A DNA stretch of 64,000 nt from Dehalococcoidia bacterium. Lineage in GTDB: Bacteria > Chloroflexota > Dehalococcoidia > Lucifugimonadales > GCA-2712585. The notes beneath the pieces are model-generated. The model searched no databases. It worked only from the letters and a program-made list of their open reading frames with translations, and was not told the origin of the DNA. Each line of letters opens with the position of its first letter. The first letter of the stretch is position 1. The position numbers and the translations under genes are program-made. Below, piece by piece: positions 1,830 through 63,028 of this stretch. The stretch spans positions 66,554 through 130,553 of the forward strand of contig CBDFHC010000004.1 of NCBI GenBank assembly GCA_965247585.1. The letters are read 5' to 3'.

Positions 1830-1849
1830 ACTAAGGAGGGCCGAGAGGC

Positions 1850-1945
1850 CTGGTGATCCCTGCGCCGGAATTACCCGGATCAGGTTCGGACGGTCGCCCC
1901 GCAGCTCCGGGGCCTCTCAGCCTGAAGAATCAAGCTCCCGTCAGG
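1850..1945 (-). promoter_or_regulatory. TPP (THI-box) riboswitch aptamer
   Basis: The minus strand reads ...gggagc...ggctgagagg...gaacctgatccgggtaattccggcgcaggga. This matches the conserved CUGAGA and ACCUGAUCNGGNUAAUNCCNGCG cores of the TPP aptamer. Positioned 5' of thiG-thiE-thiS. Confidence 0.85.
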
Positions 1946-2008
1946 TCTGACTATGTTACTAAGAAAAAGGTTAGCATGGAAAGGAAGGGCGGTCAACGGG
2001 CGTGGTAG

Positions 2009-2236
2009 TTCTGAGGGACACTTTCAGACTCCCGGCACATTCCTGTGCTGTAAGCAAGATGAACTATTTCGGTGCCGATCAGCGAGGGCGAAGCGTTAGC
2101 CGCTCCTAAGGGCTACAAATCTAAGGTTGGTGGTTCCCACCCATTCGCCCCGGAGGGTTTTTAGATGTTTCTCTGGGGGACACCCTCAGACTCCCGGCAG
2201 GGAATCCAGGTTCCCTGCACTCTCCTGTGTGGTTGG
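2009..2236 (+). repeat. Intergenic repeat cluster 1 (degenerate B, A, B)
   Basis: Module key (+ strand consensus). A: ..gcgatggg..gccacgacgaaggactgcaaatcacaggttggtggtgcccacccacccgcccaggaaggttttt. B: ttctgagggacaccctcagactcccggcag-[variable hairpin 2]-ctgcactcccc. C-left: gtgctctccc..cccagattcttcgatcctcacgggc.gactcagaatgacatgg. C-mid: gcggtatgggctcgtccttcgagagcctcaggatgagcgggttggaggcgtaggaggc. C-right: ttattttcataggaatgacatgacttgtgcggacgctcaacgcgggg. D: cccctcttaatctccccctatcgagggggagagaatttt. E: caaggtgctatcgcaccttatcgaccatccccctgaccctcttcc. E2: tgtccaggaagggggaagaaaaacgaa. F: cgagggaatcccgcatgccggttgcgaccggcaccaccagggacgaa. G: gtgaacaaattgagc..acagcgatagtgggcgc. This cluster: degenerate B 2009-2052, A 2064-2162, B 2168-2236. 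Confidence 0.9.
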
Positions 2237-3578: not shown

Positions 3579-3835
3579 GTTCTGAAGGGCATCCTCAGAC
3601 TCCCAGCAGCACCAGCCTGGTCCTGTGCACCCCTCCTGTACGGTTGGCTACAAAGGGCGGGGTGGTTTTTGCCGGGGTAGTCTGCCACTGCGATGGGCGC
3701 CGCCATGACGTAGGAGTTGAAATCACAGGTTGGTGGTACCCACCGTCCCACCCAGTAAGGTTCATAAAGAATATTTTGAGGGACACCCTCAAACTCCCGG
3801 CAGGGAACCCAGGTTCCCTGCACCCTCCTGTGGGG
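3579..3835 (+). repeat. Intergenic repeat cluster 2 (B variant, A, B)
   Basis: B variant 3579-3647, A 3716-3762, B with the cagggaaccc/ggttccctg hairpin 3773-3835. Starts 22 nt after the stop of the preceding gene. Confidence 0.9.
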
Positions 3836-4893: not shown

Positions 4894-5420
4894 GCCGTTG
4901 CTATGGGTGGTTGCTCCTAAGGGTTACAAATCGAGGGTTGGTGGTTCCCACCATCCCACCCAGGAAGGTTTTACAAAGTTTTACTGAGGTACACCCTCAG
5001 ACTCCCGGCAGAGGAGCACAGCCCCTCTGCACTCCCCCTTTCTGCGTGCGCTTCAAGAGACGATGTGTCTAGTTTCGAGGGAATCCCGCATGCCAGTTGC
5101 GACCGGCAGCACCAGGGAAGAAAACGCTAGGCTGGTGGTAGAAGTGGGCGCGAAGGTTGGATGTGCTCTCCCACCACACCCAGATTCTTCGATCCTCACG
5201 GGCCGACTCAGAATGACATGGCGGGGGGGCGGAATGCGGTATGGGCTCGTCCTTCGAGAGCCTCAGGATGAGCGGGTTGGAAGCGTAGGAGGCTTATTTT
5301 CATAGGAATGACATGACTTGTGCGGACGCTCAACATGCGATCAGGTGGCGCTGAAAATACTGACGGAGTAAAAAGTTCACAAACTCAGGAGGGGCTTTGG
5401 CTCTCTGCACTCCCTCTTTT
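4894..5420 (+). repeat. Intergenic repeat cluster 3 (A, B, F, C-left, C-mid, C-right, B hairpin-2 tail): one of the longest composites
   Basis: A 4894-4972; B 4979-5043; F 5073-5122; C-left 5143-5222; C-mid 5230-5294; C-right 5295-5345; B-tail about 5377-5412. The 10-mer gaatgacatg occurs at 5211-5220 and again at 5306-5315, bracketing C-mid. Confidence 0.9.
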
Positions 5421-8255: not shown

Positions 8256-8376
8256 CCCTCATCCCCCTCGGTCCCCCTTCTCCGGAGTAGAAGGGGGAAG
8301 AAAAACGAAGTTCTGAGGGACACCCTCAGACTCCCGGCAGGGAACCCAGGTTCCCTGCACCCTCCTGTACGGTTGG
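8256..8376 (+). repeat. Intergenic repeat cluster 4 (E2-like, B)
   Basis: cccccttctccggagtagaagggggaagaaaaacgaa, then B 8310-8376 with hairpin 2 gcagggaaccc/ggttccctgc at 8337-8358. Confidence 0.9.
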
Positions 8377-9610: not shown

Positions 9611-9744
9611 TGGTTTCCTCCCAGGTTGGTGGGTGATTGGTTGGCTGGTTTGGCGCCGGCTGCCACCGGTAGCCTGGCTTCTGGTGACGGGGCGGGGTCT
9701 AGAGGAACGATACCAGAGGTTCAGTTGGGGGGCAATGAGGGAAG

Positions 9745-10013
9745 CCTGAGGGACACCCTCAGTCTCCCGGCAGAAGGGATCTGCCCCTCTGCACTCCCCG
9801 TTAACGGGTCTGCTTAATTGAACGGAAAAGGCTTTCTCGAGGGAATCAGCGGTGGCGCAGGGTGTTGTCACCACAAAGGGTTGCAAATCGAAGGTTGGTG
9901 GTGCCCACCCACTCGCCCGGATGGTTTTTAAAGTTGTTTCTGAGGAACACCCTCAGTCTCCCGGCAGAAGGGATCTGCCCCTCTGCACTCCCCGTTAGCG
10001 GGTCTGCTTAATG
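9745..10013 (+). repeat. Intergenic repeat cluster 5 (B, A, B)
   Basis: B 9745-9815, A 9848-9930, B 9937-10013. The two B copies share the same hairpin 2 (cagaagggatctgcccctctg) and nearly the same 3' tail (ttaacg vs ttagcg), consistent with a local duplication. Confidence 0.9.
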
Positions 10014-11212: not shown

Positions 11213-11297
11213 GGAGGGAAAGGTTTTCGAAGTTTTTCTGAGGGACACCCTCAGGCTCCCAGCAAAGGGGCATGACCCCTCTGCACTCCCCTTTCAT
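11213..11297 (+). repeat. Intergenic repeat cluster 6 (A 3' tail, B)
   Basis: ggagggaaaggttttcgaag, then B (tttttctgagggacaccctcaggctcccagcaaaggggcatgacccctctgcactcccc). Ends 8 nt before the aminotransferase stop codon. Confidence 0.85.
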
Positions 11298-14164: not shown

Positions 14165-14400
14165 GTGATAGCGATTGGTCTCGGCACCACGAAGGTCTCC
14201 AAATCACAGGTTGGTGGTGCCCAACCACCCGCCCAGTAAGGTCTTATTTTAAGTTCTGAGGGACACCCTCAGACTCCCGGCAGAAGGGCTCTGCCACTCT
14301 GCACTCCCCGTTTTGGGGCTTAGCAAGTTGATGAGTAGATGGAAAAGAGAGGCTGAGGGAACCCCCTCTTAATCTCTCCCTCGATAGGGGGAGATGATTT
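14165..14400 (+). repeat. Intergenic repeat cluster 7 (A, B, D)
   Basis: A 14165-14243, B 14251-14318 (hairpin 2 at 14280-14302), D hairpin 14362-14400. Confidence 0.9.
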
Positions 14401-16620: not shown

Positions 16621-16876
16621 CACAAATGATCAAAGGTTGGTGGTGGGCTGCCGCCCCGAAACGGATTTGAAAAGGCAATTCTGAGGAAGGCCCGCGGAGC
16701 TTGTGAACAAATTAAGCCAGAACAGCGACAGTGGGCGCCATCGTAGGAGATGTTCTCCCCCCCCACCCAGATTCTTCGTTCCTCACGGGCGAACTCCGAA
16801 TGACATGGTGGGTGGCGGAATCCGGTATGGGCTCGTCCTTCGAGAGCCTCCGGATGAGCGGGTTGGAGGGGTAGAA
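16621..16876 (+). repeat. Intergenic repeat cluster 8 (A variant, truncated B, G, C-left, C-mid)
   Basis: Contains caaaggttggtggtgggc, attctgaggaagg, gtgaacaaattaagcc..acagcgacagtgggcgc, cccagattcttcgttcctcacgggcgaactccgaatgacatgg and ccggtatgggctcgtccttcgagagcctccggatgagcgggttggagg. Confidence 0.85.
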
Positions 16877-17016: not shown

Positions 17017-17135
17017 CAGGACTGCAAATTGCAGGTTGGTGGTACCCACCCAGGAAGGTTTTTAAAAGTTTTTCTGAGGGACATCCTCAGACTCCCGGCA
17101 GAGAGGGCTATCCCCCTCTGGACTCCCCGTAGAGG
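17017..17135 (+). repeat. Intergenic repeat cluster 9 (A, B)
   Basis: ggactgcaaattgcaggttggtggtacccacccaggaaggttttt, then B with hairpin 2 cagagagggctatccccctctgg. Confidence 0.9.
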
Positions 17136-17678: not shown

Positions 17679-17980
17679 CACCCCTCTTAATCTCCCTCTC
17701 GATAGGCGGAGAGAATCTTTCATTGTCGACGCAATCCCACATGCCGGTTACGACCGGCACCACCAGGGACGAACATTTCGGCTGGGAGATTCCACCTGTA
17801 CGGAGGAAGACCTATTTCGGTGCCGCTCAGCTAGGGCGAAAGGTTGCGTGCTCCTAAGGGCGACAAATCAGAGGTTGGTGATGCCCACTCACCCGCCCAG
17901 GAAGGTTTTTAAAATGTTTTTCTGAGGGACACCCTCAGACTCCCGCCAGAGAGGGTACGCCCTCTCTGGACTCTCCCCGA
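17679..17980 (+). repeat. Intergenic repeat cluster 10 (D, F, long A, B)
   Basis: D 17679-17722, F 17735-17775, A with 5' extension 17812-17908, B 17917-17980 with a perfect 10-bp hairpin 2 ccagagaggg-tacg-ccctctctgg (17946-17969). Confidence 0.9.
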
Positions 17981-18022
17981 AAAGGTCATCTTAAAATGCT
18001 GGCGACGCTATATTCGAGGCAA

Positions 18023-19186
18023 TCAGAGAAAGCGCTCGGGGCGGTAGGGCTGGAGCATCTCGACGCGGGCGCCGTCCAGGAGCTCGATGGCGGCTAGCTC
18101 ACCGACCAGTGGGGCGAGGGTAACGCCACTGTGCATGAGGGCCAGGTAGAGGTTGGGGACGCGCTGAGTGAAGCCGAGGACGGGAAAGCCATCGGCGGGC
18201 ATGGGGCGGAAGCCCAGGGGAACGGGGACGGCGGTGGCGGTGGCCAGGGCGGGGAGGAAGTGGACGGCCGAGTTTAGCAGGCGGTCGGCGTGCTGCTGGG
18301 AGTCGTCGCGGCGGAGGCTCTCCTGGGAGCCCTCGCCGATCATGACGATGCCGTCGTTGCCCTGGCGCAGGTGGATGCCGAAGTCGTTGCCAGCCAAGGC
18401 GGGGGTGTGAATGACGGCCACGGTTTGCAACACCCGGGGCTGGGGGTCGGTCCGCACGGTGACGCCAGGGCTCTCTTCCTGGGGAACGGTGACGCCAGCC
18501 ATGGCGGCTAGACGGGTGGTCTGGACGCCGGCGGCGAGGACTAGGGCGTCGCAGGGAACATCGCCGTTGGGGGTCTGCACCGAGGCCACGTGGGGGGTGG
18601 AAGCGCCGGAGGGGGCGAGACGCAGGCCCGTGACGGGGGTATTCGGGTGGATGGTTGCGCCACGAGCCACGGCGTCTTCCAGGCAGGCGCTAACGACCAA
18701 GGGAGGGTCCACCTGGCCATCTATGTCTCCCAGGGCGCCGAGAGAGACGGAGCCGGGGGCGAGGCCGGGCTCCAGCCGTCGCATCTCCGACTCGTCTACG
18801 ATGCGTGAGGGATAGCCGCGAGCCTGGAGTTGGGTGACGCGCTGGGCTATCTCTTCGGCGTCACGGGAGTTGCCAGCCCAGCGCAAGTCACCACCCCACC
18901 GCAGGCCGACGTTCCGGGGGAGGCGACGGGCGAAGCGGTCCCATACATCCATGGAGCGGCGGTTGAGGTCGTGGTAGGCGGCGGGCTCCTTGCCGAAGGA
19001 GTTGATCCAGGCGAAGGAGTGGCTGGACGCGCCGGCGCCGGGGGATGCGGCGTCGAGCACAGTAATCCTGGCACCGCGGCGGGCCAGGTGGAAGGCGATG
19101 GAGGCGCCAACGATGCCTGCGCCCGCCACGACGATATGGGGAGGGTTGCCTACTTTTTCTGGACCTATTCCTGTTGTCATGATCAT
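18023..19186 (-). CDS. FAD-dependent oxidoreductase (DAO family), copy 2
   Basis: 387 aa with an N-terminal dinucleotide-binding motif IVVAGAGIVGASIAFHLARRG. No obvious SD upstream. Confidence 0.8.
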   Translation of the reverse strand: MIMTTGIGPEKVGNPPHIVVAGAGIVGASIAFHLARRGARITVLDAASPGAGASSHSFAWINSFGKEPAAYHDLNRRSMDVWDRFARRLPRNVGLRWGGDLRWAGNSRDAEEIAQRVTQLQARGYPSRIVDESEMRRLEPGLAPGSVSLGALGDIDGQVDPPLVVSACLEDAVARGATIHPNTPVTGLRLAPSGASTPHVASVQTPNGDVPCDALVLAAGVQTTRLAAMAGVTVPQEESPGVTVRTDPQPRVLQTVAVIHTPALAGNDFGIHLRQGNDGIVMIGEGSQESLRRDDSQQHADRLLNSAVHFLPALATATAVPVPLGFRPMPADGFPVLGFTQRVPNLYLALMHSGVTLAPLVGELAAIELLDGARVEMLQPYRPERFL

Positions 19187-19300
19187 CCCGTGGGAGGGTT
19201 TGGATTACGTGCCACGATAGCTTGGGTGGGCCGGCACAACACCTACCGGATATGTAATTGACGGGCCGATTCCCTTGTTAAGTCGAGCGCCCAGGGACTA

Positions 19301-19359
19301 CGCGGTATGGGCTCGTCTTTCGAGGGCCTCAGGATGAGCGGGTTGGAGGCGTAGGAGGC
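19301..19359 (+). repeat. Intergenic repeat cluster 11 (solo C-mid)
   Basis: cgcggtatgggctcgtctttcgagggcctcaggatgagcgggttggaggcgtaggaggc. Confidence 0.85.
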
Positions 19360-21483: not shown

Positions 21484-21628
21484 ATGGCGATGGGTATCGC
21501 CACGACGAAGGACTGAAAATCGAAGGTTGGTGGTTCCCACCCACCCGCCCAGGAAGGTCTTATAAAGAAGTTTGAGGGACACCCTCAAACTCCCGGCAGA
21601 AGGGCTCAGCCCTTTTGCACTCCCCGTA
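21484..21628 (+). repeat. Intergenic repeat cluster 12 (A, B)
   Basis: A 21484-21560 (ggcgatgggtatcgccacgacgaaggactgaaaatcgaaggttggtggttcccaccc...). B 21569-21628 (hairpin 2 cagaagggctcagcccttttg). Confidence 0.9.
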
Positions 21629-22884: not shown

Positions 22885-22900
22885 GGGTGGTTACACATAG

Positions 22901-22962
22901 GATTTGAGGGACACCCTCAAACTCCCGGCAGGGAACCTAGGTTCCCTGCACTCTTCTGTAGG
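22901..22962 (+). repeat. Intergenic repeat cluster 13 (solo B)
   Basis: gatttgagggacaccctcaaactcccggcagggaacctaggttccctgcactcttctgtagg, starting 17 nt after the stop codon. Confidence 0.9.
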
Positions 22963-27223: not shown

Positions 27224-27499
27224 CTGCCAATCAAGGGTTGGTGGCGCCCACCTGCTCCAACGGCTGGGACGAAGGCGGTATGTGCTGGTCCTTCCCCTCG
27301 ACAAGGTCAGGATAAGCTTGGCCTCAGGGTGAGCAGGCCGGAGGCGTAGGAGGCTTGTTTTCATAGGAATGACATTTCTTGTTCGGACGCTCAACGCGGG
27401 GCAATGTGACGCATAAAAGCGGGCGAAACCAAAAACTGACGGCCTCTCAGACTCCCGGCAGCCACCACTCAGGTTCCCCGCACCTTCTTGTTTGGTTGG
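27224..27499 (+). repeat. Intergenic repeat cluster 14 (A variant, C-mid variant, C-right, degenerate B)
   Basis: Contains ccaatcaagggttggtggcgcccacc, ggtatgtgctggtccttcccctcgacaaggtcaggataagcttggcctcagggtgagcaggccggaggcgtaggaggc, ttgttttcataggaatgacatttcttgttcggacgctcaacgcgggg and ctcagactcccggcagccaccactcaggttccccgcac. Confidence 0.85.
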
Positions 27500-29770: not shown

Positions 29771-29835
29771 GTTTCTGAGGGACTCCCTCAGCCTCCCGGC
29801 AGGGAACCCAGGTTCCCTGCACCCTCCTGTTTGGT
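29771..29835 (+). repeat. Intergenic repeat cluster 16 (solo B)
   Basis: gtttctgagggactccctcagcctcccggcagggaacccaggttccctgcaccctcctgtttgg, lying between convergent genes. Confidence 0.9.
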
Positions 29836-31261: not shown

Positions 31262-31408
31262 GAAGGGTATCGCAACCACAGGGGTCTCAAAATTGGAGGT
31301 TGGTGGTTCCCACCATCCCGCCCAGGAAGGTTTTTGAAATGTTTTTCTGAGGGACACCCTCAGACTCCCGGCAGCCACCACCCAGGTTCCCTGCACCTTC
31401 CTGTGTGG
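31262..31408 (+). repeat. Intergenic repeat cluster 17 (A, B)
   Basis: A 31262-31335. B 31343-31408 carrying the arm-less hairpin-2 variant gcagccaccacccaggttccctgc (31371-31394). Confidence 0.9.
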
Positions 31409-33451: not shown

Positions 33452-34020
33452 GGTATCTCCACCACGACGCCCTTGAATTCACAGGTTGGTGGTTCCCGCC
33501 ATCCCGCCCCGGAAGGTTTATTTCTAAGGGACACCGTCAGACTCCCGCCAGAGAGATTGTGAATAAATTGACGTGGCACAAAGGTAGTGGGCGCAGGGGT
33601 TGGATGTGCTCTCCCGTCGCTACCAGATTCCTCAATCCTGACGCACGGACTCGGAATCCATCATGTTGGCCTCCAGCACCAGGGAGGATGACAAAAGAGT
33701 GGCGGCTATCATCCATGGTGACCGGTATAGCTACTACAAAGGATTGCAAATCACAGGCTGGTGGTTCCCACCGTCCCGCCCCGGAAGGTTTAAGAAACGA
33801 ATTTCTGAGGGACACCCTCAGACTCCCGCCAGAGGGGGATGGCCCCCTCTGGACTCCCCCTTAGTAGGCGCAGGTTGAGTAGGGACGGTGCTATGTTCAT
33901 AGGAATGACGTGTCTTGTGCGGACGTTCGGCGCCCGAACATGCAACGCTGGAAACATGGAAGAAGGCAAGAATTCACAAATTCAGAGGGAGTCTCGCCCT
34001 CTGCACTCCCCCGTTGGGGC
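33452..34020 (+). repeat. Intergenic repeat cluster 18 (A, truncated B, G, C-left variant, F-like, A, B, C-right, B hairpin-2 tail)
   Basis: About 570 bp made almost entirely of modules. Truncated B/G junction at 33541-33575 (actcccgccagagagattgtgaataaattgacg). Second B 33801-33870 has a perfect hairpin 2 ccagaggggg-atgg-ccccctctgg (33829-33852). Confidence 0.9.
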
Positions 34021-36167: not shown

Positions 36168-36510
36168 GATAACAAATCGCAGGTTGGCGCTTTCCACCAT
36201 CCCGCCCAGTAAGGTTGAAAAAACTAAGTTCTGAGGGACACCCTCAAACTCCCGCCAGAGAGTTTGTGAGTAAATTGAGCTGATACAGCGATAGTGGACG
36301 CTAAAGTTGGAGTTGCTTACCCTACCCAACCCAGATTCCTCGATCTTGACCCACGGACTCGGAATCGATCATGTTGGCGTCCAGCACCAAGGAGGGTGAA
36401 AAGAGAGTGGCGTGTGCAGCCCCTCTTAATCCCCCCCTCCATAGGGGGAGAGAATTTTGCTATTTTCATAGGATTGACGTGACTTGTTCGGCTCCTTGGA
36501 CAACGACGAC
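36168..36510 (+). repeat. Intergenic repeat cluster 19 (A, truncated B, G, C-left variant, F-like, D, C-right)
   Basis: Same module order and the same truncated-B/G junction (36248-36282, actcccgccagagagtttgtgagtaaattgagc) as cluster 18. Confidence 0.9.
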
Positions 36511-40040: not shown

Positions 40041-40467
40041 CGCGGTATGGGTTCGTCCTTCGAGGGCCTCAGGATGAGCGGGTTGAAGCGGCGGTTGGGG
40101 AATAGGATTGCTCCAGATAATCGAGCGGGAGAGGGCAGGCTGGAGTGGAATGAACGACACGGGATGCCGGGGTGGGACTTGCTCTCCCCCCACACCCAGA
40201 TTCTTCGAACCTCACGGACGGACTCAGAATGACATACAAACTGTCTGGAGCGTGGATATGGTGACGCGGGAAGGGTTAAGGGAGCCGTAGGGGATTTTAT
40301 CGAGGCAATCGGCCATGGCGATGGGGATAGCCACGACGAAGGACTGCAAATCACAGGTTGGTGGTGCCCACCCACCCGCCCAGGGAGGTTTCTAAAAGTT
40401 TTTCTGAGGGACACCCTCAGACTCCCGGCAGCCACCACCCAGGTCCCCTGCACCCTCCTGTGCGGCG
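40041..40467 (+). repeat. Intergenic repeat cluster 21 (C-mid, C-left, A, B) inside the operon
   Basis: C-mid 40041-40092, beginning 10 nt upstream of the soxG-like ATG. C-left 40175-40240, A 40313-40392, B 40399-40467 (arm-less hairpin-2 variant). Confidence 0.9.
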
Positions 40468-45136: not shown

Positions 45137-45545
45137 CAAGGTGCTCTCGCACCTTATCGACCATCCCCCTAACCCTCTTCCTGTCCAGGAAGGGGGAAGA
45201 AAAACGAATTCTCTGAGGGACACCCTCAGACTCCCGGCAGGGAACCCAGGTTCCCTGCACCCTTCTAGATTATCAACGGGGTCAAGTTACTTTAGAATTG
45301 TCGCACTCTTAATCCTAGGTTTCGGCAAGGTGCTATCGCACCTTATCGACCATCCCCCTGACCCTCTTCCCGGCAGGGAACCCCTCTCTTAATCCTAGGT
45401 TTCGGCAAGGTGCTATCGCACCTTATCGACCATCCCCCTGACCCTCTTCCTGTCCAGGAAGGGGGAAGAAAAACGAATTCTCTGAGGGACACCCTCAGAC
45501 TCCCAGCAGAAGGGCTCTGCCCCTCTGCACTCTCCGATTTGCTGC
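45137..45545 (+). repeat. Intergenic repeat cluster 22 (E, E2, B, tandem E x2, E2, B) inside the operon
   Basis: E copies at 45137-45181, 45327-45370 and 45407-45450. A near-perfect 80-bp tandem unit sits at 45306-45370 and 45386-45450. B 45208-45272 (cagggaaccc class) and B 45476-45545 (cagaagggc class). Confidence 0.9.
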
Positions 45546-49704: not shown

Positions 49705-49848
49705 AGGGAATCGCCCACGGCTGTTGAGACCGGCGCCACCAGGGACGAAAAACCAGGGTTACATTTCACCACCTGCTCATCTGGACCGATGGAAAGCGGT
49801 ATGGGCTCGTCCTTCGAGAGCCTCAGGATGAACGGGTTGGATGTGTAG
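49702..49848 (+). repeat. Intergenic repeat cluster 23 (F, C-mid)
   Basis: F begins at the stop codon of the preceding gene (tagagggaatcgcccacggctgttgagaccggcgccaccagggacgaa). C-mid 49796-49848. Confidence 0.85.
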
Positions 49849-51604: not shown

Positions 51605-51752
51605 GCGGGTATGAGCACCGCAGAGGACTGCGAAGCACAGGTTGGTGTTTCCCACACACGACCACCCAGTGAGGTCGAATTTCTGAGGGACACCCTCAGA
51701 CTCCCGGCAGAAGGGCTGTGCCCCTCTGCACTCCCCCTAGTTGGGCGCAGAT
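51605..51752 (+). repeat. Intergenic repeat cluster 24 (A, B)
   Basis: Shares its subfamily with cluster 15 (cacgaccacccagtgaggt ... ctagttgggcgcagat). B hairpin 2 at 51707-51729. Confidence 0.9.
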
Positions 51753-56259: not shown

Positions 56260-56408
56260 CGGGGGATGGCGTTGCTACCACGAAGGACTGCGAATCACGG
56301 GATGGTGGTGCCCACCGTCCCACCCAGAAATGTTTTTAAAAGCGAATTTCTGAGGGACACCCTCAGACTTCCGGCAGGGAACCAGGGTTCCCTGCACCCT
56401 CCTGCAGG
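56260..56408 (+). repeat. Intergenic repeat cluster 26 (A, B)
   Basis: A 56260-56340 (ggggatggcgttgctaccacgaaggactgcgaatcacgggatggtggtgcccacc...). B 56346-56408. Confidence 0.9.
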
Positions 56409-57710: not shown

Positions 57711-57935
57711 GGTGGACCTCCCGATGGGGTTGGGGTGGGTGGGTTCCAGTGCGGTTGGAGTATAGCAGGTGGGGGTGGGGTGGGGAGGGAAAGGGGGGCT
57801 TTGGTATCATCTAAGCTCATGAGGTTTTGGATGGTATAGCAAGCTGCGGAATCCTTTGGTGCCACTATATTAATGGCTTTTGGACATGGGCAAGACGGGG
57901 CGCTCCGACGATGTTGAAAAAATTCAGAATTCAGG

Positions 57936-58364
57936 ATGACGGTAATTGTTGTCGTCGCTGTTGGAACGCTCATTTGCGGAGTATATTGTGACCCGCAGTT
58001 TGAGTCCGTTGAGTGGACTGTGGTGAACAATACAGCTATTCCGATTGGAGGGTTTCTAAACGGTGTAGCGAGCGGTCCGATTCTTCCACCTGGGGGAGAT
58101 GGCGGATTCATCCGCGGCGCGCCGGACAAGGCTCAACAGGGCGAGACAAGATACATTTTCAGGGCTCTTGAGTTCGTTCTGGGCGAAGGCCTGCTAGCAG
58201 GTCCGGGCGGCACTGGGCATATGGGAAAGTTGGTGTTTTGCAGGGAATACACGTGGAATGAAATGGAGGCGATGGAGTTTAAGATAGTCGTAACGCAGAA
58301 TATTCCTGGGGCGGTGCACTACGTCGAAGGGGAGCCGTGTCCGGTGGCGAACGAGCAGGGGTGA
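57936..58364 (+). CDS. Hypothetical protein with a hydrophobic N-terminus (secreted or membrane-anchored), lower-GC island
   Basis: 142 aa starting MTVIVVVAVGTLICGVYC. No family recognised. Visibly lower GC than the flanking genes. Weak SD. Confidence 0.4.
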   Translation: MTVIVVVAVGTLICGVYCDPQFESVEWTVVNNTAIPIGGFLNGVASGPILPPGGDGGFIRGAPDKAQQGETRYIFRALEFVLGEGLLAGPGGTGHMGKLVFCREYTWNEMEAMEFKIVVTQNIPGAVHYVEGEPCPVANEQG

Positions 58365-58383
58365 CATTGCCCATTAAAGCTAC

Positions 58384-58707
58384 GTGATCCGGACCTGTGG
58401 GCAACTTTGGCGCGGACAAGAAGTTCACCTGGCAGCGACTGGAGGGGAGGCTGGGGAGGTTGACGCGATTGTTGAACGTGGCGGCCTGCTGGACCTGGTT
58501 GAAATCAAGACTGGTAGTTTGGCCCATCTCCGCGGGGAACACCTCGAGCAGCAATTGAGTGTATTATCTGACTACGCAGAAGAGCACATTGACGAATTCA
58601 CCGGCCAGAAGATACTTGTGATACACGGGTACCTGAAGCCGACGGTGAAACCACACGTCAAAAAATACACGGCCGACACAGGTTTCGAGGTGGTATATCT
58701 TCCATGA
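58384..58707 (+). CDS. Orphan Rhs-associated C-terminal module with a PD-(D/E)xK nuclease-like core (possibly frameshifted)
   Basis: GEVDAIVERGGLLDLVEIKTG matches the D...(D/E)xK core of YraN/Hjc-like restriction-endonuclease-fold proteins. Nucleotides 58399-58446 are about 80% identical to the Rhs core tail at 59688-59735, but that tail is read in a different frame from this ORF. Confidence 0.45.
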   Translation: MIRTCGQLWRGQEVHLAATGGEAGEVDAIVERGGLLDLVEIKTGSLAHLRGEHLEQQLSVLSDYAEEHIDEFTGQKILVIHGYLKPTVKPHVKKYTADTGFEVVYLP

Positions 58708-59561
58708 AGCCTATCTGGTACACCCGTACATTTCTGGAAAGCGACCGTATTTCTCGAATGGGCATGGAACGCTATATCGGCATTCTGTTGAATCGCGGCT
58801 GGCAGCCAGTTGTTGACTACGACACACCCTTCGGTACCGCAGAATTCTTAAAGCTAGATTCGGAGGTTCGGGGGTTAGAGACGGGCAGTCTAGATCAGGC
58901 AATTGAAGCGTCAGTTCAGCAGCAAGAAGCCTACATAGGGTTTGGGCGAAGCTTCCCCTTCGAAAGGGACGGCCAACAAAACGTATACCGAGTACTGTTG
59001 GATCTATTTGTAAAGCATTTTGATGCGCCCAAAGGGTTGGACAACGAAGAAGACTGTGAAACCGCCAAGCCATTTCTAGAGGTTGGATTTGATGTGGACC
59101 TCATCCAGTGGCAGGGTATACCGGGCGCCTATAAAGAGATTTACGAGTTGAGTTGCACGATGTTTGAGTCGTTAAACCCCCTCTACGGATTCGGAGATGG
59201 GTCTGATTTAGAGTACATGGGACTTGGGATGTGTGATGGGCCATCGTATCCCGAAATCCTAGGAGACACACGGCCACCTATATTCTGGCTCAACTACTTT
59301 ACGAAAAAGCACTTGGAGATAATAGGTGAAAACCGGGTCCTTGAGTGTGCCGAGGTTGAGGTGAGGGAATATGAGACCGGGGGGACCTCTCTGTTCTTGG
59401 GCTATCCGTTGAGCTTCTATCCGATCAGTGGCTGGACTCCGAGTAAAGGCGAATGGGTCGGTGAGGAGGATTACGAGATAAGAATTATTGAAAGCCTTAA
59501 TCTGAGAAGTTGGTGGGTGCCAGATAAGCATCCGTTGTTGATGAAACACCCGTACCTGTGA
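58704..59561 (+). CDS. Candidate cognate immunity protein (285 aa, no family recognised)
   Basis: ATGA overlap with the preceding toxin-like ORF indicates translational coupling. Acidic cytoplasmic protein with lower GC. The call is positional only. Confidence 0.35.
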   Translation: MKPIWYTRTFLESDRISRMGMERYIGILLNRGWQPVVDYDTPFGTAEFLKLDSEVRGLETGSLDQAIEASVQQQEAYIGFGRSFPFERDGQQNVYRVLLDLFVKHFDAPKGLDNEEDCETAKPFLEVGFDVDLIQWQGIPGAYKEIYELSCTMFESLNPLYGFGDGSDLEYMGLGMCDGPSYPEILGDTRPPIFWLNYFTKKHLEIIGENRVLECAEVEVREYETGGTSLFLGYPLSFYPISGWTPSKGEWVGEEDYEIRIIESLNLRSWWVPDKHPLLMKHPYL

Positions 59562-59562
59562 T

Positions 59563-59826
59563 TTGGTGGCGACGCTGCGCTATTTCCATCAGGACCACTT
59601 GGAGAGTTCCAGCGTGGCGACGGACAGCACCGGAGCGTCGGTGGGGACGCAGACGTACAAGCCGTTTGGGGAGACTCGCACGTCCACGGGCAGCTTTGGC
59701 ACTGACAAGAAGTTCACGGGGCAACGGCTGGACGGCACGGGGCTCTACTTTTACAACGCTCGGTACTATGACGCAACGCTGGGCAGGTTTGTGGGGGATA
59801 GCCCCCGCCGATTCCCCGAAAAGTGA
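59563..59826 (+). pseudogene. Truncated Rhs/YD-repeat core C-terminal fragment
   Basis: RYFHQDHLESSSVATDSTG...TYKPFGE...KKFTGQRLDGTGLYFYNARYYDATLGRFVGDSP is the conserved end of the Rhs core (YYHxDHLGS ... GLYYYGARYYDPxLGRFxSxDP). It begins abruptly 1 nt after the preceding stop and ends at a stop that abuts a module-B hairpin. There is no N-terminal core and no toxin domain. Confidence 0.8.
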
Positions 59827-59866
59827 CGGCAGAGGGGCCAGCCCCTCTGCACTCCCCGGATTTTGG
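59827..59866 (+). repeat. Intergenic repeat cluster 27 (B hairpin-2 tail only)
   Basis: cggcagaggggccagcccctctgcactccccgg with a perfect 9-bp stem gcagagggg/cccctctgc (59829-59850). Directly abuts the stop of the Rhs fragment. Confidence 0.8.
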
Positions 59867-62427: not shown

Positions 62428-63028
62428 GGTCTCTGGGGGGCACCCTCGGAATTACTGCAGGGGATCCAGGTTTTCTGCACCGTCCTGCGCGGTGGTAATT
62501 GTTTGTAAGGTGAGCCGCAAAGGGTTGCGAATCGAAGGTTGGTGGTTCCCACCGTCCCGCCCCGGAAGGTTATTATGAATTACTGAGGGACACCCTCAGA
62601 CTCCCGGCAGGGAACCTAGGTTCCCTGCACCCTCTTGTTTGACGGTTCTTCATAGACTGGTTGGGGCTATTGACGAAACGATCGTCCCCGGAGGGAGTGA
62701 GCGATGCCACGACGCGTGGAAATTCAGGATTGGAATCCCAAGCGGGCGCCGCGGTAGGACTTGCTCTCCCCCCGCACCCAGATTCTTCGATCCTCGCGGG
62801 CGGACTCGGAATGACATGGTGGGGTCGGAATGCGGTATGGGCTCGTCCTTCGAGGGCCTCAGGATGAGCGAGTTGGAGGCGTAGCAAGCTTATTTTCATA
62901 GGAATGACATGTCTTTTGCGAGCGTTGAACGCGGGCCAATGTGACGCTGAAAAGAACGAAGAAGTCAAAAACACAGGCTCTCAGGATGATCGGGAATGGG
63001 AGGCCGAAGGTAATTTTTCATAGCAAGG
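62428..63028 (+). repeat. Intergenic repeat cluster 28 (degenerate B, A, B, C-left, C-mid, C-right, C-mid fragment): long composite
   Basis: Degenerate B 62428-62493, A 62510-62572, B 62578-62645, C-left 62755-62820, C-mid 62829-62890, C-right 62891-62950. The 10-mer gaatgacatg at 62809-62818 and 62902-62911 brackets C-mid, as in cluster 3. Confidence 0.9.

Follow-up and report, generated by a model that had tools for sequence, protein, structure and literature searches.

The locus at 17917-17980 of the window, i.e., the whole 64-kb (64,000-nucleotide) stretch of Dehalococcoidia DNA analysed here, carries a pair of neighbouring hairpins that recurs along the same DNA. It raises the question of whether the second hairpin is held by its structure and not by its sequence and, if so, whether that structure matters in a DNA strand or in an RNA. 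A first-pass annotation, made from the letters of the window, had proposed the former and offered both a protein-recognised DNA hairpin and a structured RNA as readings. All its coordinates were checked and were correct (17917-17980, 8337-8358, 33829-33852, 31371-31394 and 40428-40451 included). The repeat, called module B, is made up of hairpin 1 (CTGAGGG-ACA-CCCTCAG), an ACTCCC spacer, hairpin 2 and an ACNCCCC tag, in that order. The parts of the focal copy, together with the module A found upstream of it, were placed as follows.

17813..17917, + strand: module A of the focal copy, with a variable stem, GAAGGACTGCAAATC, a hairpin GGTTGGTGG/CCACCCACC, CCAGGAAGG and an A/T-rich linker, from an alignment of 19 window copies
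17922..17938, + strand: hairpin 1 of the focal copy, CTGAGGGACACCCTCAG, with a 7 bp stem and a 3 nt loop, nearly invariant across species
17939..17944, + strand: spacer or tag ACTCCC, at least 90% conserved; a similar ACNCCCC tag follows hairpin 2 (near-invariant columns 22-27 and 52-57)
17946..17969, + strand: hairpin 2 of the focal copy, CCAGAGAGGG-TACG-CCCTCTCTGG, a perfect 10 bp stem of the C-G closing-pair class
17970..17977, + strand: 3' tag ACTCTCCC after the focal hairpin 2, at the end of the covariance-model match 17918-17977

Judged by its letters, module B looks like two tandem REP-like units of "palindrome plus tag", both with a C-rich tag.

A search of the window with the 17-mer core gave 26 matches at up to two mismatches, where 0.04 were expected. 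A covariance model of the hairpin 1 plus hairpin 2 structure (R1), built from 74 gap-free copies, located 28 module B copies in the window at E<5e-4, all of them on the + strand and at a density of about one copy per ~2.3 kb; the model matches on the - strand were palindrome echoes at the same positions as the + copies. Hairpin 2 was intact in ~22-23 of the 28. Two copies were truncated after GCCAGAGAG (33524 and 36231), and in two others (31347 and 40404) the left arm of hairpin 2 was lost, as had been described. The hairpin 2 with one A.C mismatch noted earlier at 51707-51729 was present, as was the one at 59829-59850, a site without hairpin 1; at 27458-27481 a degenerate hairpin 1 stood beside the hairpin 2 that had been taken for a recombinant. 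The copies other than the focal one are listed below.

2007..2044, + strand: degenerate module B copy whose hairpin 2 is short; model 32.5 bits
2169..2226, + strand: module B copy of class GGGAAT/GGTTCCC; model 59.1 bits
3578..3634, + strand: module B copy, degenerate; model 35.1 bits
3772..3829, + strand: module B copy, hairpin 1 closing pair T-A (compensated), hairpin 2 of class GGGAACC; model match
4980..5038, + strand: module B copy of class GAGGAGC/GCCCCTC; model 71.4 bits
8309..8366, + strand: module B copy of class GGGAACC, with the widespread hairpin 0 type upstream; model match
9742..9800, + strand: module B copy, first of a tandem pair; model match
9936..9994, + strand: module B copy, second of the tandem pair (with 9742..9800); model match
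11234..11292, + strand: module B copy, the sole window copy with a right terminal inverted repeat (TTTCATCAGCCTGCTA, at 11289); model match
14252..14310, + strand: module B copy; model match
17070..17129, + strand: module B copy, closing-pair half-step G.G (GGCAG...CTGGAC); model match
21568..21626, + strand: module B copy, hairpin 1 closing pair T-A; model match
22900..22957, + strand: module B copy, hairpin 1 closing pair T-A; model match
27432..27489, + strand: decayed copy, hairpin 1 degenerate and hairpin 2 minus its left arm; model 16 bits
29028..29086, + strand: module B copy; model match
29771..29828, + strand: module B copy; model match
31343..31402, + strand: module B copy, hairpin 2 left arm replaced (GCAGCCACCACCCAGGTTCCCTGC); model match
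33520..33570, + strand: module B copy, truncated within hairpin 2; model match
33801..33860, + strand: module B copy, CCAGAGGGGG/CCCCCTCTGG, perfect 10 bp; model match
36227..36290, + strand: module B copy, truncated within hairpin 2, hairpin 1 half-step C.A; model match
40400..40459, + strand: module B copy, hairpin 2 left arm replaced; model match
45209..45266, + strand: module B copy, hairpin 0 type upstream; model match
45478..45536, + strand: module B copy, hairpin 0 type upstream; model match
51679..51737, + strand: module B copy, best model score in the window (84.5 bits)
56346..56403, + strand: module B copy; model match
59785..59858, + strand: hairpin 2 plus tag only (59829-59850), without hairpin 1; model match
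62429..62486, + strand: module B copy, degenerate, with G.T-rich hairpin 2 pairing; model match
62579..62636, + strand: module B copy; model match

The repeat was also present in other genomes. The exact 23-mer formed by hairpin 1 and ACTCCC occurred in at least 85 stretches from at least 28 MAGs of the genome collection; among the matches listed, all belonged to Dehalococcoidia/Chloroflexota MAGs and none to the genome of the window. The best gene shared between the window and the matching MAGs was 74% identical in DNA, and the window has the gene content usual for a SAR202-like genome, with paralogous amidases as well as luciferase-like monooxygenases, FAD oxidoreductases, class-III aminotransferases and TPP enzymes. 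Complete MAG chromosomes among the carriers of the element include OY762261.2, OZ250142.1, OZ240219.1 and OZ253478.1. Model R1 gave 178 matches in 715 kb, and tandem arrays of the element were found at L018, L084, L083 and L077. With the other MAGs added, hairpin 1 plus ACTCCC stayed at least 90% invariant. The family is previously undescribed, with no match in Rfam or in a literature search: the Rfam 15 scan of the whole window at gathering threshold gave a TPP riboswitch elsewhere as its sole hit and none for the repeat, E-value scans of the focal copy and of the full unit (see below) gave chance-level matches only, and no specific description was found in the literature on Dehalococcoidia, Chloroflexi or SAR202 repeats (MITE, REP or palindromic).

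Pairing in hairpin 2 was then compared with its sequence. In the alignment of window copies (A4), 94.6% of the stem cells were paired, as compared with 84.6±0.8 when the 3' arms were dealt out randomly; changes on both sides of a pair were seen in 49 cells, against 15.2±3.7 in the shuffles (0/500), and among the 10 pairs of hairpin 2, 7 showed such double changes. When the register was shifted by 1-3 columns, at most 53% of the cells were paired. The second alignment (A2) combined the window with the other genomes in 140 distinct sequences, of which 93.4% of the stem cells were paired (86.9±0.3 in shuffles) and 109 cells carried double changes (14.3±3.4 in shuffles, 0/500), now at all 10 hairpin-2 pairs and with up to four Watson-Crick types per position; slid registers gave 61% or less. 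Since alignments fitted to a model lean towards structure, a gapless count was also made without the model, and 856 of 984 pairs (87%) in 112 distinct hairpins were Watson-Crick.

Hairpin 2 used at least six unrelated stems that shared a GCA...TGC base and the same position, with loops varying freely: AGGGGC/GCCCCT, ATCCCGAC/GTCGGGAT, GGGAACC/GGTTCCC, GCG/CGC, GGAGG/CCTCC and GAGAGGG/CCCTCTC. Several of these types coexisted within one genome. Single-pair swaps (G-C/C-G and C-G/T-A) also occurred; the coordinated closing-pair change from G-C to C-G that had been pointed out in the window was seen repeatedly there and again in two further MAGs (10 cells), half-steps being rare (8 cells unpaired). 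Hairpin 1 was paired in 99% of cells in the window and the other genomes, and its few changes included a compensated closing pair, C-G to T-A, in the window copies at 3776, 21572 and 22904 (with a half-step at 36231) and a compensated A-T to G-C change, CTGGGGG/CCCCCAG, in L067. One stem column (61/134) was uncompensated, with A.C in 61 copies, G-C in 56 and T.C in 12.

The window counts and the copies from ~28 other Dehalococcoidia MAGs agree in that the pairing of hairpin 2 is kept while its sequence changes. They support a constraint on structure and not on sequence, more strongly with those MAGs included, as counts that do not formally separate selection from palindrome-specific mutation. 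The idea of compensatory changes across classes held with a qualification: the single-pair swaps and the C-G closing pair stand, and most of the differences within the window are whole stems linked to the 3' tail. Class GGGAACC/GGTTCCC goes with tail ACCCTCCTGT and GAAGGGC/GCCCCTC with tail ACTCCCCGT, so the window alone amounts to a handful of independent events; the classes followed this tail and not the upstream module, with which a correlation had been put forward for testing. The window classes are therefore subfamilies of a mosaic element and differ mostly by whole stems and not by stepwise compensatory substitutions.

Without structural selection, the pattern would have to come from a few clonal subfamilies whose arm complementarity arose by template switching or gene conversion in quasi-palindromes, or was inherited from founders. 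The co-variation of hairpin-2 classes with the 3' tail in the window is in keeping with such an origin, as are the recurrence of the same classes across genomes as old subfamilies and the form of GGGAACC-CA-GGTTCCC, an almost loop-less perfect palindrome. We nevertheless consider it improbable, given that six or more unrelated stems occupy one geometry and position in ~28 MAGs, that loops are free while stems stay paired, that single-pair swaps occur with rare intermediates and that the sequence of hairpin 1 is held across species. The A.C or T.C mismatch left uncorrected at one position in more than half of the copies argues, in turn, against a general self-correcting mechanism.

Because hairpin 1 is conserved in sequence, beyond its pairing, and copies are present in nearly every intergenic region of the window, we also considered double-stranded binding sites, in which the 7-3-7 palindrome of hairpin 1 would be an operator to which a nucleoid protein or another dimeric DNA-binding protein attaches, with hairpin 2 as a second site of this type. 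This is very unlikely: hairpin 2 shifts to unrelated self-complementary sequences that one dimeric protein could not follow, and a symmetric site gives no reason to expect the strong orientation bias described below.

In the other genomes module B was found within a unit of ~147 bp (145-150 bp), bounded by 19-bp terminal inverted repeats (TAGCAGGSTGCTGAAAAAC...GTTTTTCAGCAGCCTGCTA); 30 full units were found in these MAGs. Their flanks read C|TAG...CTA|G, and the flanks that departed from CTAG agreed with each other as direct repeats (CTAA/CTAA once and TTAG/TTAG three times, i.e., four direct and no reverse-complement cases). This may be the mark left by a DDE transposase, a putative target duplication of 4 bp with the form YTAR (or centred on TA). 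The terminal TAG was the stop codon of the neighbouring gene in 8 cases, a reuse expected if TA-containing stop codons were favoured targets in a 63% G+C genome. In L021 an IS unrelated to the family interrupts one copy; this IS has ends of its own and is accompanied by a TTAAG duplication. Upstream of module B these genomes carry a third hairpin, hairpin 0, with a C-rich 5' arm and a varying sequence, often CCCCCTTCCTGG/CCAGGAAGGGGG, whose mean fold energy was -14.6 kcal/mol as compared with -9.8 kcal/mol for shuffles. Either strand of the full unit is predicted to fold as a closing stem with three hairpins; the closing stem showed no compensatory change in the full units, the ends being conserved in sequence. 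The element is non-coding, with indels between copies disrupting every frame, and readings as a small ORF or a Shine-Dalgarno site were rejected for that reason. Taken together, the inverted repeats, the flank repeats and the unit bounds identify the family as a MITE that carries three hairpins inside. In the window and the loci searched, no autonomous transposase whose ends match (CAGGSTGCTGAAAAAC) was found; the one transposase that recurs near copies, DDE_Tnp_1_4, differs in its ends (CCCGAATCCACCGAA) and was inserted into a copy. Recurrent neighbouring proteins were also inspected as mobilising enzymes and discarded, being only metabolic paralogues and an unrelated IS.

The position of the element relative to genes was determined by counting a single copy in each intergenic region, on gene calls based on codon-position G+C. 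The other genomes gave 55 tandem, 12 convergent and 3 divergent contexts. In the tandem ones, 43 copies were antisense, i.e., the mRNA carries the complement of module B as written here, and 12 were sense (p=3e-5); the bias persisted, with 27 antisense against 8 sense (p=0.002), when the most-sampled MAG was left out. Orientation was mixed even within 8-kb loci and unrelated to local GC skew (70/138), a comparison that is uninformative since the skew there was ~0. The commonest non-pair of hairpin 2 (61/140 copies) is an A.C as written here and becomes a G.U wobble on the complementary strand; outside that one hypervariable position a wobble test gave 35 A.C and 29 G.T, with no strand preference. 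REPs are likewise distributed behind tandem and convergent genes (PMC3733652). GC-rich hairpins situated behind genes would also be expected of intrinsic transcription terminators. We rejected that reading as extremely unlikely: a terminator combines a GC-rich hairpin with a direct U-run, and no T-run directly follows either hairpin on either strand; a terminator scan of 8-23 kb detected just 2 of ~10 copies, marginally, and window copies also lie in divergent promoter regions.

Our best explanation, held tentatively and at somewhat less than an even chance, is a mobile repeat whose insertions lie behind genes and are transcribed along with them; its hairpin 1 and tag would be read by sequence, and its hairpins 0 and 2 would only need to fold. 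Module B is the conserved core of these ~150-bp non-coding interspersed repeats in the intergenic regions of Dehalococcoidia (SAR202-like). Hairpin 1 with ACTCCC, held in sequence, would presumably be a protein recognition site, and hairpin 2 with ACNCCCC, like the upstream hairpin 0, would be held in pairing only. The element would spread as DNA; in most genomes it has 19-bp inverted repeats and a putative 4-bp YTAR/CTAG duplication, and it would insert mainly just behind genes, often re-creating their TAG stop codon. It would then be transcribed in the 3'-UTR or intercistronic RNA, mostly as the complement of module B as written here, and copies would persist if the multi-hairpin fold were kept, so that a stem could be exchanged or compensated, yet not disrupted. 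The RNA might act like REP, ERIC and Correia elements, as a structured block affecting 3'-end stability or processing. The covariation, the end repeats, the bias in position and orientation and the invariance of hairpin 1 across species are observed; a constraint acting on RNA, a protein reading hairpin 1 and a stabilising or processing role are what we infer. Against this explanation stand the closing stem, which is uncompensated, the wobble test, without strand preference outside one position, and the search of the window and the loci for an autonomous transposase with the same ends, which found none; the orientation bias could, moreover, stem from avoidance of a harmful sense orientation and not from an antisense function. 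Two further points against it come from the window itself, where tandem contexts were 4 antisense and 5 sense with all repeats on one strand, and where copies have no terminal inverted repeats, apart from one right end.

The version of the repeat in the window differs in its upstream part. Module A (~100 nt) stands in place of the left inverted repeat and hairpin 0, and the repeated A+B unit is ~157 bp long; three copies (8313, 45213 and 45482) keep the hairpin 0 type instead. The core of module A, AGGTTGGTGGTNCCCACC, gave ~19 specific matches on the + strand of the window and 2 weak ones (2-3 mismatches) on the - strand, in coding sequence, and no match among the 85 genome loci. Module A was found only in the lineage of the window's genome. 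Terminal inverted repeats were absent from the window copies except for the right end at 11289; a likeness of the A+B unit ends to inverted repeats was unconvincing on inspection (7/13 positions).

Gene contexts in the window were 4 divergent, 5 tandem-sense, 4 tandem-antisense and 8 convergent, and the orientation of the copies ignored the genes. Comparison of the window with itself by BLAST gave 285 direct repeat matches and 1 inverted one. The GC skew at third codon positions was +0.43 for + strand genes and -0.51 for - strand genes, i.e., the + strand is G-rich regardless of gene direction. A metagenome scan with the module A core gave mostly non-specific matches and 5 short related contigs; 4 of these fit an element oriented with the G-rich strand and 1 goes against it, too few to decide. 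The co-orientation in the window suggests that, in this genome, a strand-specific process operates at the level of DNA. Between the two readings offered at the outset, the orientation relative to genes in the other genomes favours a structured RNA, and the placement of all window copies on one strand favours a process at the DNA level.

Such a process could be of the REP or IS200 kind: the hairpins would fold as single-stranded DNA at the replication fork, and an HUH (RAYT-like) tyrosine transposase would read "hairpin plus tag" and mobilise the element strand-specifically, for which hairpin 2 would have to pair for binding. The palindrome with a conserved tag, twice in tandem, has the required form, and tandem arrays occur (L018, L084, L083 and L077). 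All 28 window copies and the 6 copies of a second repeat family, co-oriented with module B, lie on one strand of a window with extreme strand asymmetry, whatever the gene direction; the lack of inverted repeats and the single strand are as expected of an IS200/IS605-derived element (PATE), a type with hairpins near its ends, neither inverted repeats nor a duplication, and an orientation that follows the replication strand. The conserved internal mismatch could serve strand discrimination, as internal mismatches do in IS608 and attC. We still hold this account, the main rival, to be unlikely. The copies of the other genomes, unlike an IS200/IS605-derived element (PATE), have inverted repeats and a direct flank repeat, as is typical of DDE rather than Y1 transposons; within single 8-kb loci these copies occur in both orientations, and their orientation is unrelated to the local skew (70/138; skew ~0). 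Neither a GTAG nor a CGTC tag is present, and no Y1 gene occurred among the scanned window ORFs or the recurrent families near copies. A further scheme, to which we give a low probability, is that in the window's genome the family switched from DDE spread dependent on inverted repeats to a strand-specific mode of spread or retention that works through single-stranded DNA and is tied to replication, with hairpin 1 and its tag read by a conserved HUH-type or other hairpin-binding protein. If true, this replication-tied switch would explain two co-oriented repeat families amid a third-position GC skew of ~0.45 on one strand.

The closest known systems share some of these features. In REP, BIME and REPIN sequences, which RAYT tyrosine transposases mobilise, structure-preserving change is well known, and MITEs that fold in RNA are known too. 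The present repeat resembles REPs in its short, GC-rich palindromes that carry a conserved tag on one side, in its very high copy number, in its location between tandem or convergent genes downstream of coding regions and in its plausibly transcribed hairpins; it has the 20-40 bp imperfect palindrome at high copy number by which REPs are defined, and REPs also preserve pairing as their sequence drifts (PMC3733652). It differs from them in its tag (ACTCCC, or GGGAGT on the complement, and not GTAG or CGTC), in its two units being direct and not inverted, in being embedded in inverted repeats with a putative flanking duplication and in a core shared unchanged by many species, REPs being as a rule confined to a single one. 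No RAYT gene was seen in the window or the loci examined.

With DDE-type MITEs that have TA-centred targets (IS5/IS630-type, e.g. Correia) the repeat shares its length of ~150 bp, its non-coding nature, ~19-bp inverted repeats and the intergenic location; its putative CTAG/YTAR duplication would be a further likeness. Correia elements of Neisseria are MITEs transcribed into structured RNA that affects mRNA fate. Here, in contrast, the most conserved part is an internal hairpin and not the ends, the window copies are without inverted repeats and joined to a different upstream module, and the parent IS was not found in the window and loci searched. BOX of Streptococcus pneumoniae (boxA-boxB-boxC) and ERIC of enterobacteria are modular, reassorting intergenic families with predicted stable RNA folds; the modular build of module A or hairpin 0, hairpin 1 and hairpin 2 is similar, in unrelated sequences and another phylum. 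BOX and ERIC are not known to be strand-uniform. Integron attC sites and the end hairpins of IS200/IS605 are folded single strands recognised by structure, in which unpaired bases set the strand, with a strong orientation rule. Our repeat differs from these in having no R/L box, GTTRRRY core, cassette organisation or adjacent integrase or TnpA, and its putative flanking duplication and its inverted repeats do not fit.

The unusual features of this family are a 23-nt core that is identical in ~28 MAGs, a density of ~1 copy per 2.3 kb and a complete co-orientation under extreme strand skew. Dehalococcoidia of the SAR202 type are abundant, mostly uncultured bacteria of the ocean and of sponges, and their non-coding DNA is essentially uncharted. 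The repeat is a useful marker in them and a probable regulator of transcript fate, and the difference between a sequence-locked hairpin 1 and structure-locked hairpins provides a handle for finding the protein that reads it. Annotation is affected, since the ends of the element supply stop codons, and so is assembly, since the element forms tandem arrays. Finally, the strand-uniform repeats and extreme skew of the window's genome make it a testable case of replication-coupled repeat dynamics.

The interspersed repeats of the window (1-64000) were all co-oriented, self-BLAST giving 285 direct matches versus a single inverted one, which corresponded to a paralogous gene pair. A second repeat family, GGTATGGGCTCGTCCTTCGAGGGCCTCAGGATGAGCGGGTTGGA, was present in six copies, 6/6 on the positive strand; it is part of a unit of ~150 bp and has an imperfect palindrome of its own (GCTCGTCC...GGATGAGC).

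Copies of the second repeat family GGTATGGGCTCGTCCTTCGAGGGCCTCAGGATGAGCGGGTTGGA in the window
5238-5281, + strand
16824-16867, + strand
19304-19347, + strand
40044-40087, + strand
49798-49841, + strand
62834-62877, + strand

Strand asymmetry over the same 64,000 nt was extreme. GC skew ranged from +0.12 to +0.30 across all 2-kb bins, and at third codon positions it was +0.43 for positive-strand genes and -0.51, in coding sense, for negative-strand genes; the C-rich strand carries ~61% of the coding length. Skew was close to 0 in the related loci from other metagenome-assembled genomes (MAGs).

In several copies of module A, the ~100-nt module upstream of module B (hairpins 1 and 2), the negative strand reads GGGCGGGTGGGTGGG (e.g., 40373-40387; the corresponding positions of the focal copy are 17890-17904). 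As a sequence motif, this is of the G-quadruplex type, with four G3 tracts and 1-nt loops, and it is imperfect in the remaining module A copies. Another motif, TTCGAGGCAATCAG, located at 18013-18026, is recurrent: it lies both at the start of module A and downstream of module B, at a distance of ~50 nt, so that the units are flanked by a direct repeat. Its TCA at 18023-18025 forms the stop codon (TGA) of the negative-strand gene 18023-19204.

Features next to module B copies in the window
1836-1951, - strand, TPP riboswitch, exceeding the gathering score at 57.7 bits
51907-52664, - strand, gene pair of PIN-domain toxin and Phd/YefM antitoxin, adjoining the module B copy at 51679-51737

The riboswitch sits upstream of the negative-strand gene 992-1810, and two module B copies (2007-2226) lie directly beyond it. 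The region 57900-59830 has a low G+C content (0.54) and ORFs with atypical codon-position G+C and no Pfam matches; it stops at an isolated hairpin 2 (59829-59850) and may be acquired DNA.

In the other MAGs, the unit's terminal TAG (or CTA) served as the stop codon of the adjoining gene at eight element ends.

Loci with such a stop codon
L028, 939-1085, convergent gene pair, both genes terminating in the two termini of a single element
L013
L040
L045
L050
L067

One repeat copy (L021, 743-2599) was interrupted, within the A/T-rich linker separating the variable hairpin 0 from hairpin 1, by an IS of ~1.7 kb with a DDE_Tnp_1_4 transposase, ends CCCGAATCCACCGAA and a TTAAG duplication. Copies of this IS were 99% identical in L045, and related ones (77-88% identical) occurred in L016 and L024.

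The whole unit was also arrayed in tandem at four loci, some arrays taking in a stretch of flank.

Tandem arrays of the whole unit
L018, 641-1565
L084, 282-847
L083, 4474-4842
L077, 286-719

In the order listed, the first two arrays comprise 4-5 copies, at ~200 bp and at 169 bp respectively, the third has 3 copies at 155 bp, and the fourth has 4 at 126 bp. These arrays imply that the repeat is amplified by unequal recombination as well as by transposition.
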